Positions 23,911-27,481 are shown, counted from the whole stretch's first letter. The stretch is 63,845 nt of DNA, filler included, from Reclinomonas americana ATCC 50394 (GCA_048213135.1; 10 parts of 4 records of this genome joined end to end with filler, not necessarily neighbours in it), one strand, 5' to 3'. Translations and numbers: made by a program. Notes: generated from the letters alone by a model not told the origin.

Positions 23911-26903
23911 TCACAGCTCAATCGTGAACCCACCCAGTCTCTCTCGCAGAGCGAGCATCACCGTCCTTGCCTCCACCGCAGTTGGCCGATCGTAGAATAG
24001 CGACATGCATCTGCGGAGGGACAGTGAGCTCACTCTTCCCTTCCCCTTCCTCGCCGTCGCACGCAACTGCACTCCCAACCGCAGCATCCCACTCGCCACA
24101 TCCGCCGGCCACTGACCCGCTGCACGATCGGCCTCTGCCGACGCGTCCACAGCGTCGAGTGCGCGCTCCCAACGCGGTGCCTGACCGACCAGCGCGCGTG
24201 CCTCGCGACCTGTCAGCAGCTGCAGAAGGATCAGGCCGAACGCGTGCAGATCCATGGAGGTGCGGATCTCGCCAGAGCGGAGGAAAAGCGGGTCGATGTA
24301 GTGCGGGGAGCCGGCGTGTGTGGTGGTGTGGCGGTGTGTCTAGGTGAAGGAGAGGGTGAGACGGGGCAACGATACTCAGTCAAGGAAGATACCAATACAG
24401 CAGGCAACGAGGGAGAAGAGTGAATACATGCAAACAGAAACGATTACTGATCCGAGAGCAAAATGTGTGCACTGTCTTCAAAGCGTGCTGCTCGGCTGGG
24501 TATTGCCGAAGCCGAGAATGATCGAGTGCTGTTGCAAGAATAGAGCACAAACAACGCAGATGCTCTCTGCTGCCACCGACTCACCTCCCCCTCGTCGAAA
24601 ATGCGCGCAATGCCAAAGTCGCCGAGGCGTGGCTCACATCGATTGTCGAGTAGAATGTTGGATGGCTTGAGGTCGCGATGCACAACGTTGTTCTGAGGGG
24701 AGGGAGAGCGGTGATGTCAGTCACTTCGAAGACGAGGGCGACACTCTCAAGTCGCAGTAATTTCGACACCGCTTTGAGAGGGAAAAAGTAACGGTGATGC
24801 ACATACACACACACACACACACGCGCGCGCGCGCACGCACGCACGCACACACAAGCTGAATGAGAATAGCATGCAGTGACTTGAACAAGAGAGTGAAGGT
24901 GACAAGAGGGACAATTAATAGACGATGATATACACGAGAGCTGAATGAGAGAAGCATGCAGCGAGTTGCACAAGAGAGTGAAGGTGCCGAGAGAGAAAAC
25001 AGAGGAGACGACGATACACACGAAAAATGGTTAGAGAGTAGGCAGCTGCAACCCACTGCAGAAATCACAACAATCAACACAGACACCGCGACAAGATACG
25101 AGTACACAAAAGCGATATCGTACTTGGTCGTGTCCCCATGATTCACCTGATGCAAGAAGCACATGCCCTCGACGATGCCGAGTCCGATTTGCACACGCTC
25201 CACCACTGAGAGAGAAGGCATGTCGGCCACCCGCTTCACGAGTCGCTTCTCCAGATCTTGTCCACTGCGAGCGATGAGCAGACAGAGACATGAGAGGGGA
25301 AAGAGAGCGAAGCACAGGCACTACTGAAGTGGGACAGGGAGGAAGCGAGAGAAGGAAGGGGAAGGGAGGGGAGAAATGCAGAGAGAACAAACACGGAGAG
25401 GACTGACAGAGGAGAGCGACACTTGCATGAGCAAGAGTGAGTGAGAGAGAGAGAGAACAAACACAGAAGCGAGACTTGTATGAGCGACTAAGAGAATATG
25501 AGAGAGCATGTGAGAGGATGAGACACAACGAGAGAGAATGAGAGAGAATATGAAAGAGAGAGAAGGAGAGAGTGGCGGACAGCGAGGCAGCGAGAAGCAA
25601 GGAAACCCGAGAGAAGGAAGGGGAAAGGAGGGACTGACAAAGAGAAAAGAGGGCAATCGTCCAAGCGAGAGACGAGGAGGACAGAAAGGGATTGTTAGGC
25701 AAACACTAAGGGGAGAGCAGATGCAGCGAGAGGAGGAGAACAAGTGGACAACAGACAAGCATGCAATGAGTGAGGTTGCGATGTCACAGTCGAACGGAAA
25801 CCGTTCTGTCTTCCTTCTTCTGCTGATCCCTCACCCTTCACCCACTTCGACACTCACCGCATGGCTCGATACACCAGACACCAACCACGCACAGTGCCGC
25901 CCTCCGCCAATGTGGCATAGCCGAGCAGCGGAACGAGTCGCCGGTGATGTAGACGTCCAATGGTGTTCAGCTGCAGCATTCAAAATTGAGAATCCACCAG
26001 ATCGCTCTCTTCTCTCCCTCATCGCTCACCTCGGCATCGTACGAATCCACGGCCCACGGTGCGGCATCATCCAGTCGCTTGACTGCCACGTCTTCCTCGT
26101 TCAGCCAGCACAGGTACACGCTACCACCACCACCCTCGCCGGCCTTCAGATCCGCAGAAAAAGAGTTGGTGGCACGCAGAATGTCGGGCCAGGTGTATTC
26201 GCGCAGACGGTTGGGATCAGCGGCTGCACGGACAAAAACAGAGAGGTTGGTGCATGAGAGTGGCACTGCACCTGGCACTCCAATTACCTTGGAGAGTAGC
26301 AAGCTCGCGACGCAGGCGATCAATTTCCAGGCGCAGGCGCTCGTTTTCACGAGCTTGATCGGCAGACCGCTGCCGCTCGCCTGCGAATGCCTGTGCTTGT
26401 TGCTCAATATCGCGCTGCAGCTGAGTGATACGATGCTGACATGCGGCATTGGCCTGTCGCCAGTCCGAGTTTGCTTGCCCGAGCTCGCGAGCACGCTGCT
26501 GCCATTCTGAGTTCGCATCCTGGAGCTGGTTCACAATGTCCTCGTGCTCTCGCTGCTGCTGAACGTGTCGCTCAAGTTCTCGTCGCTGCTTCTCTCGCTC
26601 CAGTCTGAGTTCGTCACACTCTCGCTGTTGTCGGGCGACAAGTGCGTCCTTGTCGGCAAGCTGACGCGTCATGACGCTGATGGCATCTCTGGCACAGCGT
26701 TCGAGCGAGGCGGCCACGCCGAGATGACCTCGTTCGCGCGCCCACTCAGCGGCCGTCTTGCCAAACTTGTTGACCACGGGAATGAGGTCGGGATATCGAG
26801 AGGCCAGGAGTCGCGCGACCGCTTCGTAACCTTGGTACGCAGCAAAATGCAGTGCAGTGGACTGCGCATCGTAATTCTGGTCATTCGTGACCGCACGCAC
26901 CAT
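23911..26903 (-). CDS. Ankyrin/coiled-coil/protein kinase of RLK-Pelle/IRAK type (3' exons)
   Basis: [96 protein letters not shown]. All exons are phase-compatible. Confidence 0.9.
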
Positions 26904-27066
26904 NNNNNNNNNNNNNNNNNNNNNNNNNNNNNNNNNNNNNNNNNNNNTTAATTAATTAANNNNNNNNNNNNNNNNNNNNNNNNNNNNNNNNNNNNNNNNN
27001 NNNTGTGTGTCGTTCTCGTCTCTCGCAGCAGCGCAGTGTGCCGACCTTGTTGATTGTTGGAGCAAC

Positions 27067-27481
27067 ATGGCTGCTGCGCGTGGTGGGGCAGCGGCAGGCA
27101 GCGGTGGTCGGAGGTTTGTGATGTTGTCAGGTCGATCTCTTGCCAGTGGCACTCACTCCTTTTCTCCGTTGCAGGAAAAGACCATGTGAGATGGCATTCA
27201 GTGGCGACGTGGACGCACTGCGGCAGCTAGTGATGCGCGAGGGCGCACAAACCCTGCTTAAGGAAGAAGAGATGGGCGAGGACGGTTCTGCGTACAACTG
27301 TGCTGTTTGGCAGGGCCATGTCCCTGTGTTGGAGTACTTATGGGCGGAGAGCGGCGTGGGCCCACAACTCGCACGTAGGATCGACGAGGATGGTAGGACG
27401 CCACTGATGCAAGCTGCCGAGAATGGGCATCTGCAGGTGGTGGAATGGTTGCTGGCCGATGAGCGACGGTGTCCGCCGGAG
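27067..27481 (+). CDS. 5' exons of the ANK-kinase (contig mis-oriented)
   Basis: MAAARGG../KRPCEMAFSGDVDALR...TPLMQAAENGH...RCPPE joins directly to MVRAVTND at 26903(-), paralleling RCPPEIVRAVTND in the paralogue. Confidence 0.85.

Follow-up and report, generated by a model that had tools for sequence, protein, structure and literature searches.

An ankyrin, coiled-coil and RLK/Pelle-type kinase gene of Reclinomonas americana and its multi-copy family

Gene model and the join across an assembly gap

The window analysed here is a stretch of 63,845 nucleotides, filler included, from Reclinomonas americana ATCC 50394 (GCA_048213135.1), joined from 10 parts of 4 records of this genome. At positions 23911-27481 it carries a gene predicted to encode ankyrin repeats, a long helical stalk and a kinase of the receptor-like kinase (RLK)/Pelle type. 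When the 478-bp contig at 27004-27481 was re-oriented, a stop-free frame of 624 amino acids was obtained from nine exons of a predicted gene model, with GT-AG intron ends and agreeing phases, and Pfam Ank_2 and Pkinase both matched it. At the level of sequence, this confirmed a real gene with the order of ankyrin, coiled coil and kinase proposed in the preliminary description, and the motifs quoted there were all found on the minus strand. The protein consists of five ankyrin repeats (approximately residues 16-189), the stalk (190-323) and the kinase (330-620).

Exon 1 (27067-27113, plus strand) starts with an ATG, reads MAAARGG at its beginning and ends in a GT donor in phase 2; it lies on the 478-bp contig, which points the opposite way on the scaffold. 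The first part of exon 2 (27175-27481, plus strand) encodes ankyrin repeats 1-3 and runs to the contig break, while the second part (26288-26903, minus strand) encodes repeats 4-5 and the stalk. Ank_2 matched 27125-27481 (plus strand, E 3.4e-11) and 26220-26903 (minus strand, E 3.5e-5, under the curated cut-off), and the paralogs C5955:3206 and C6069 aligned to model residues 1-189. The remaining exons are all on the minus strand and encode the kinase: exon B (26030-26223) with the pre-kinase YTW..ATNSF motif, the glycine loop, VAVK and the alphaC glutamate; exon C (25858-25970) with the gatekeeper tyrosine (CLVY); exon D (25147-25264) with alphaD-alphaE; exon E (24585-24692) with HRDLKPSN and DFG; exon F (24068-24339) from the activation segment to YIDPL, which has no APE glutamate, followed by subdomain IX and DxxAGxWP; and exon G (23911-24010) with subdomain XI and the stop. 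Two of the kinase exons were matched by Pkinase, exon E with an E value of 1.2e-10.

The stalk comprises about 135 residues rich in Q, E and R and appears to be of coiled-coil type, a call made from the sequence without a fold; only weak coiled-coil Pfam families (CC2-LZ/HAUS1) matched there. The highest 19-residue Kyte-Doolittle mean in the 624-residue model was only 1.24 and was situated within the kinase, indicating that there is no membrane segment. The same hydropathy scan gave no signal peptide, ectodomain or transmembrane helix of the kind that defines a transmembrane RLK. A GTGAGT at the stop could serve as a donor to a further domain; nevertheless, the paralogs stop at the same place, within four codons after the kinase in 29 of 31 high-scoring models.

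Exon 2 is split by an assembly gap with linker (26904-27003) that measures 100 bases in the window and 1191 N in the genome assembly (G000), enough to accommodate a different 5' end. The link between the 478-bp contig and the kinase contig was thus not read through, but it is well supported. The ends at 27481 and 26903 abut at a codon boundary, and 21 paralogs have the same exon-2 junction, read straight through with no intron. Contig C3750, which is about 90% identical to and collinear with 26903-21699, begins at the same base as the break. A single exact copy of the 478-bp piece exists in the genome, and the next best match is 77-78% identical. Taken together, this is what one node that two haplotypes share, and that precedes both, looks like. 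It could be argued from the opposite orientation of the contig on the scaffold and from the 1191-N gap that this piece came from another copy, with the true first ankyrin half inside the gap or missing. Given the exact abutment, the shared junction, the shared break and the single exact copy, we regard such an artefact as highly improbable, and by the Pfam match ankyrin repeats 4-5 sit on the kinase contig regardless. Elsewhere in the genome, 17 of 19 tandem copies (C702, C5955, C6069 and C148) have the whole ankyrin exon on the same strand as the kinase, lying 620-750 bases upstream of it with no gap between, the other two adjoining gaps, and L084 is a single unspliced frame of 683 residues from the ankyrin repeats through the kinase N-lobe. 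The window contains nine 100-base gaps with a 12-base linker, of which 26904-27003 is one, and window distances across such gaps are compressed, as the 100-base gap that was checked stands for 1191 N.

Kinase class, catalytic motifs and related architectures

The phylogenetic position of the kinase was determined with IQ-TREE (LG+C20 PMSF) using 63 rows and 277 columns; 23 of 86 rows had been dropped to save computing time, including the long-branch family member L068_2984. The outgroups were oomycete, parabasalid and bacterial kinases and one amoebozoan tyrosine kinase-like (TKL) sequence, with no MLK, Raf, RIPK or ankyrin-bearing TKL among the rows. RLKs, IRAKs and the family formed a clade with 100/99 support, as expected from the RLK/Pelle assignment of the preliminary description. 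Within it, the family was recovered at 100/100 and grouped at 98/94 with five rows of plant and charophyte receptor-like cytoplasmic kinases (RLCK) of class IXb, also known as PUB-VI. The IXb rows, namely P0114 (Arabis), P0105 (Brassica), P0022 (Handroanthus), P0146 (Colocasia) and P0143 (Chara braunii), held together at 97/87 with the family as sister rather than nested among them, and the IRAKs formed a group of their own at 99/97. FastTree with all 86 rows also gave the large RLK, IRAK and family clade (0.944), with the family near its base. In approximately unbiased (AU) tests, a grouping of the family with the one sampled amoebozoan TKL was rejected (p=0.006), whereas two positions outside RLK and IRAK were not (p=0.131 and p=0.122). 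The family therefore appears as sister to RLCK-IXb in the best tree, and the AU tests leave a deeper position possible. Among the other TKLs that could have claimed the kinase, the one sampled amoebozoan sequence is thereby disfavoured, and MLK, Raf and RIPK were weighed by structure-database (PDB) ranking only.

In that ranking, the first 45 rows matched by the C-lobe profile were all plant RLK/RLCK or IRAK4, followed by PDK1 and two further IRAK4 rows, and RIPK3 was absent (best 60 of 581 matches). A search with the single sequence placed BRI1, IRAK1, BAK1 and PBL2 on top and RIPK3 lower. A tyrosine gatekeeper was present in 44 of 45 family models; among the aligned rows it occurred in 10/10 of the family, 12/13 IRAK, 5/5 IXb, 15/21 other RLK and 1/14 outgroup rows. 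This residue is described as an RLK/Pelle hallmark common to plant RLKs and IRAK/Pelle in the accessible part of PMC4260089. With the family hidden Markov model (HMM), scores were 121-212 bits for RLCK-IXb, 131-194 for IRAK, 128-188 for other RLKs, 77-113 for non-RLK TKLs and 79-122 for bacterial kinases. The DxxAGxWP motif was considered as a plant-specific marker and rejected because IRAK-like rows also have it, an AGxW-like motif being found in the Artemia IRAK-like row P0202.

The preliminary description had called the catalytic motifs intact. This held for the VAIK-type lysine motif (VAVK), the alphaC glutamate, HRD-x-K-xx-N and DFG, all present in this gene, but not for the APE glutamate or the glycine-loop aromatic residue, both of which are absent. 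Across the 45 family models, catalytic motifs were kept in 42-44 each, HRD in 42, VA(V/I)K in 43 and DFG in 43, and the alphaC glutamate was visible in the printed models, where it was not counted. Neither the APE glutamate nor the glycine-loop aromatic was found in any of the 45; in the aligned rows of the family, the glutamate was replaced by L in 9/10 and by R in 1/10.

By family-HMM score the closest kinases are those of RLCK-IXb (up to 212 bits), the class of Arabidopsis PUB33. Like these, the protein is soluble, has a G/S-x-W motif in subdomain X-XI and has, by sequence, a long alpha-helical domain right before the kinase. Unlike these, the family has an ankyrin (sometimes TPR-like) head instead of a Usp or WD40 head, lacks the U-box and the APE glutamate, retains the arginine-aspartate (RD) pair, and forms its own long-stemmed clade outside IXb. 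Pfam found no Usp domain in the gene, while the control P0114 gave Usp. A C-terminal U-box, reported for 9 of 20 Arabidopsis IXb members in the accessible part of 10.64898/2026.02.10.704836, is likewise absent, since the stop follows the kinase directly. The same logic of head, stalk and kinase is seen in the Chara protein P0143, where WD40 repeats form the head and a long helical stretch joins an IXb-like kinase.

The animal IRAK4, Pelle and Tube-like proteins share with the family the 100/99 clade, the gatekeeper tyrosine, solubility and an N-terminal interaction domain ahead of the kinase, and score up to 194 bits. They differ in that the family lies outside the IRAK clade, has a long stalk and no death domain, and numbers more than 100 copies against a few; Pfam detected no death domain in the gene, while the control P0389 gave Death_2. 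The kinase is assigned to the RLK/Pelle type; lacking Usp and U-box and not being nested in the clade, it is no IXb/PUB-VI member, and lacking a death domain, it is no IRAK, nor is it a membrane RLK. The earlier idea of ankyrins in place of a death domain is less fitting than a description of them as standing where RLCK-IXb-like coiled-coil kinases have a Usp or WD40 head. By analogy, the protein is best understood as operating in the manner of an RLCK-IXb-type coil-kinase whose head has been exchanged.

Ankyrin repeats and a TKL-group kinase are combined in one soluble chain in RIPK4/ANKK1, ILK, Dictyostelium ARK and the plant Raf-like ankyrin kinases. These belong to a different kinase class, with RIPK3 ranking under plant RLKs and IRAK1, and RIPK4 and ANKK1 have the domain order opposite to ankyrin-then-kinase. 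Fungal NLR sensors carry variable ANK, TPR or WD40 repeats and resemble the family in their hypervariable repeat head, swappable ANK/TPR modules and multiple copies; in the family, however, the signalling unit is a kinase with a stalk and not a NACHT/NB-ARC switch. No description of an ankyrin, coiled-coil and RLK/Pelle architecture was found in the literature searched, in which most subscription journals were not covered.

The gene family and its head variants

The first kinase exon (exon B) was matched by 150 of 150 scored candidates in a search of the genome (E up to 1.3e-12; 236 candidates at first look), and the last exon pair gave 149 genome matches. The family thus exceeds 100 copies, part of them in tandem arrays, in counts that include alleles. 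The near-identical pairs L056/L057 and L061/L062 are probable alleles within these counts, and the true number of genes may be closer to half. From 56 kinase models obtained by spliced alignment, 45 were kept (score >540 and stop-free, with three truncated or mis-modelled ones removed). The same six kinase exons, free of stops, were present at 31 of 37 modelled loci, and all 19 array copies encode a full-length kinase without stops.

The heads vary. L086 (G000:C140, 3437-5281) is a family kinase with a TPR-like head in place of the ankyrin repeats (TPR_12, E 1.8e-5, under the cut-off), and L050 and L053 have several ankyrin modules in series. L049 has a non-ankyrin head that is common to the neighbouring gene: in G000:C7878 (240-2198 and 3776-5602), a cysteine-rich module stands at the N-terminus of both the kinase and the next gene, suggesting exon shuffling. 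The C-terminal part of that next gene presumably resembles the Cys box of a ubiquitin-specific protease, although there was no Pfam match. In L053 (G000:C848), which has three ankyrin modules, HRN and GGF stand where HRD and DFG are expected, and the product is likely a pseudokinase paralog. In L045 (G000:C253, 2716-5125), only the C-terminal half of the kinase is tandemly duplicated, with a GC-AG intron donor in both copies. Ankyrin-coil genes without a kinase also exist. One of them is the neighbouring paralog at 22839-23522 (minus strand), which has an ankyrin head and a short coiled coil and is 57% identical; its own kinase exons were not found in the window.

Outside this genome, a search of 1.84 billion representatives gave no close relative of the family among those representatives; at a cut-off of 145 bits, own-family domains scored 156-259 and the best database domain 106, in a search dominated by multi-kinase proteins through their summed scores, by which moderately related protist kinases may be hidden. 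A word-index search with the last exon pair as query gave no match, and when metagenomes were scanned with the ankyrin alignment, 4 of 96 pattern matches were hits, all of them weak and generic. In the ESM Atlas, the C-lobe query returned streptophyte kinase clusters, while nothing but generic ankyrin clusters, below 0.9, came back for the long-frame query. Apicomplexans and green algae have RLK/Pelle genes in small numbers. We take the family to be lineage-specific and amplified in tandem.

Divergence of the ankyrin face and the proposed role

Divergence was compared among 17 tandem copies, in which no kinase pair exceeded 96.5% nucleotide identity. Mean protein identity was 76% for the ankyrin repeats and 93% for the kinase. 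The 32 binding-face codons were fixed before the test by designed ankyrin repeat protein (DARPin) numbering, which we take to apply to these repeats; the alignments had already been seen when the codons were chosen. The nonsynonymous divergence (dN) was 0.49-0.54 at the binding face, against 0.09 for the ankyrin framework and 0.04 for the kinase, and none of 10000 random codon sets attained the value at the face. Surface dN also exceeded the synonymous divergence (dS) of framework and kinase, with a 95% confidence interval (CI) of the ratio that ranged, with the weight given to transitions, from 1.10-1.96 to 1.39-2.57, and lay above the divergence of five introns (0.14-0.38). The kinase itself is strongly conserved (omega about 0.1). 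These comparisons show a hypervariable ankyrin binding face and suggest positive selection on it.

As one of many copies that pair a fast-changing ankyrin head with a long helix and an immune-type kinase, the gene may encode an internal recognition receptor. We give about half of our confidence to the family being an intracellular repertoire of recognition kinases used in defence against bacteria, viruses or endosymbionts. The role of a cytosolic sensor-kinase offered in the preliminary description is plausible, and the hypervariability of the binding face lends it indirect support. According to the accessible part of 10.64898/2026.02.10.704836, PUB33 self-associates, its kinase is held inhibited by the Usp and helical domains at the N-terminus, and its coiled-coil model is of low-to-moderate confidence. 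By analogy with this behaviour of PUB33, the stalk would hold two copies together, as modelled for the PUB33 helical domain. The ankyrin face would bind a variable, probably foreign, protein, and binding would rearrange the stalk-held dimer and relieve N-terminal inhibition. The relieved RD kinase would then trans-autophosphorylate and signal to a conserved downstream target, and the kinase-less ankyrin-coil paralogs might act as decoys or partners.

Several observations weigh against this reading. At the surface codons, omega was 0.83-1.28 in pairwise estimates with a CI that spans 1, and 0.74 by maximum likelihood (ML), where the framework gave 0.51 and the kinase 0.09. The dS was raised at the binding-face codons too, and relaxed constraint with gene conversion could produce the same divergence pattern. 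The family-wide absence of the APE glutamate and of the glycine-loop aromatic means that kinase activity is not assured, and the TIR matches that were read in this genome (C4379, C696) look bacterial. PUB33 mutants were without a clear immune phenotype in the accessible part of 10.64898/2026.02.10.704836.

The raised dS, together with partial duplications such as the second kinase C-half of L045, copies that lack a kinase, a stop in one model and the degeneration of some kinases, would be expected from near-neutral birth-and-death by unequal crossover and gene conversion, with the exposed ankyrin residues under relaxed constraint. However, all 19 array copies retain a full-length stop-free kinase, kinase omega is 0.09 and surface dN exceeds intron divergence, so that we consider near-neutral turnover distinctly improbable. 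A purely endogenous function, in which host substrates or scaffolds are the targets of the head, or kin or cell types are recognised by it, and the copies have sub-functionalised with no part in defence, appears rather unlikely. Ankyrin kinases with housekeeping roles are common (ILK, ARK, Raf-like), and a surface omega not above 1 and the lack of clear immune defects in the PUB33 mutants agree with it. On the other hand, a face that diverges faster than introns would be unusual for fixed host partners, and the family has more than 100 copies, partly in tandem arrays.

The genomic context of the proposed recognition repertoire includes a large NACHT family, with 97 hits in the genome (287 first-look candidates). 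Five long frames, from six loci, encode an N-terminal domain, NACHT and WD40 in proteins of 1340-1590 residues. L099, L100, L101, L103 and L104 are intron-poor and NLR-like, and besides an unassigned N-terminal domain and NACHT they have a stretch resembling pentapeptide repeats and numerous WD40 repeats. The kinases could be imagined as decoys or guardees of such NACHT-WD40 proteins, as ZED1/ZRK and PBL2 are with ZAR1, catalysis being secondary. On C360, one NACHT member and a family kinase are about 11 kb apart, the APE glutamate is lost family-wide and HRD is missing in 3/45 models; in addition, the ZRK decoys (RLCK-XII-2) are neighbours of RLCK-IXb according to the accessible part of 10.64898/2026.02.10.704836. 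This arrangement seems improbable to us, as the catalytic motifs are otherwise kept at the frequencies given above under omega of about 0.1, the variability sits in the ankyrin repeats and not on the kinase surface, and a single neighbouring pair among more than 100 loci may be due to chance.

The usual view of RLK/Pelle kinases is that of an expansion in plants plus a few animal IRAKs. A survey of membrane kinases across kingdoms reports RLK/Pelle to be dominant in plants and charophytes (PMC10463195), and leucine-rich-repeat transmembrane kinases are reported across protists, mostly basal (PMC13091385). A family of more than 100 copies in a non-photosynthetic eukaryote, conserved in its kinase and variable in its ankyrin face, bears on the origin of RLK/Pelle kinases, and on whether microbial eukaryotes own diversified intracellular receptors. 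Its size, variable head, missing APE glutamate and NLR-like context are the main points of note. Tentatively, and with more doubt than belief, the family may be a third independent RLK/Pelle radiation, after those of land plants and animals, in which an RLCK-IXb-like coil-kinase cassette gave rise to more than 100 all-in-one intracellular immune receptors with DARPin-like heads that are hypervariable and swappable, beside an NLR-like family expanded to the same degree. If so, the plant logic of RLCK plus NLR immunity would have a unicellular counterpart, and coil-bearing RLK/Pelle kinases would be older than the plant-animal split. The proteins lend themselves to assay: they are single and soluble, the differences among natural variants fall mainly on about 30 surface residues, and the family-wide loss of the APE glutamate is itself open to assay.

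The host is an intron-rich, non-photosynthetic eukaryote; no light-harvesting protein was matched in the genome, an absence that is not proof. A single small-subunit (SSU) rRNA match of 1521 bases was found, on a bacterial-looking megabase contig. The bacterial-looking contigs G000:C1, C2, C696 and C4379 include this match and TIR/Thoeris-like defence genes. Within the window, several WD40 frames without introns occur at 36948-37661, 49506-50030, 50027-51355 and 50508-52337. The repeats inside them are very similar to one another and of the type seen in the NACHT-WD40 proteins, while the frames apparently lack NACHT and have a short C-terminal tail in common.

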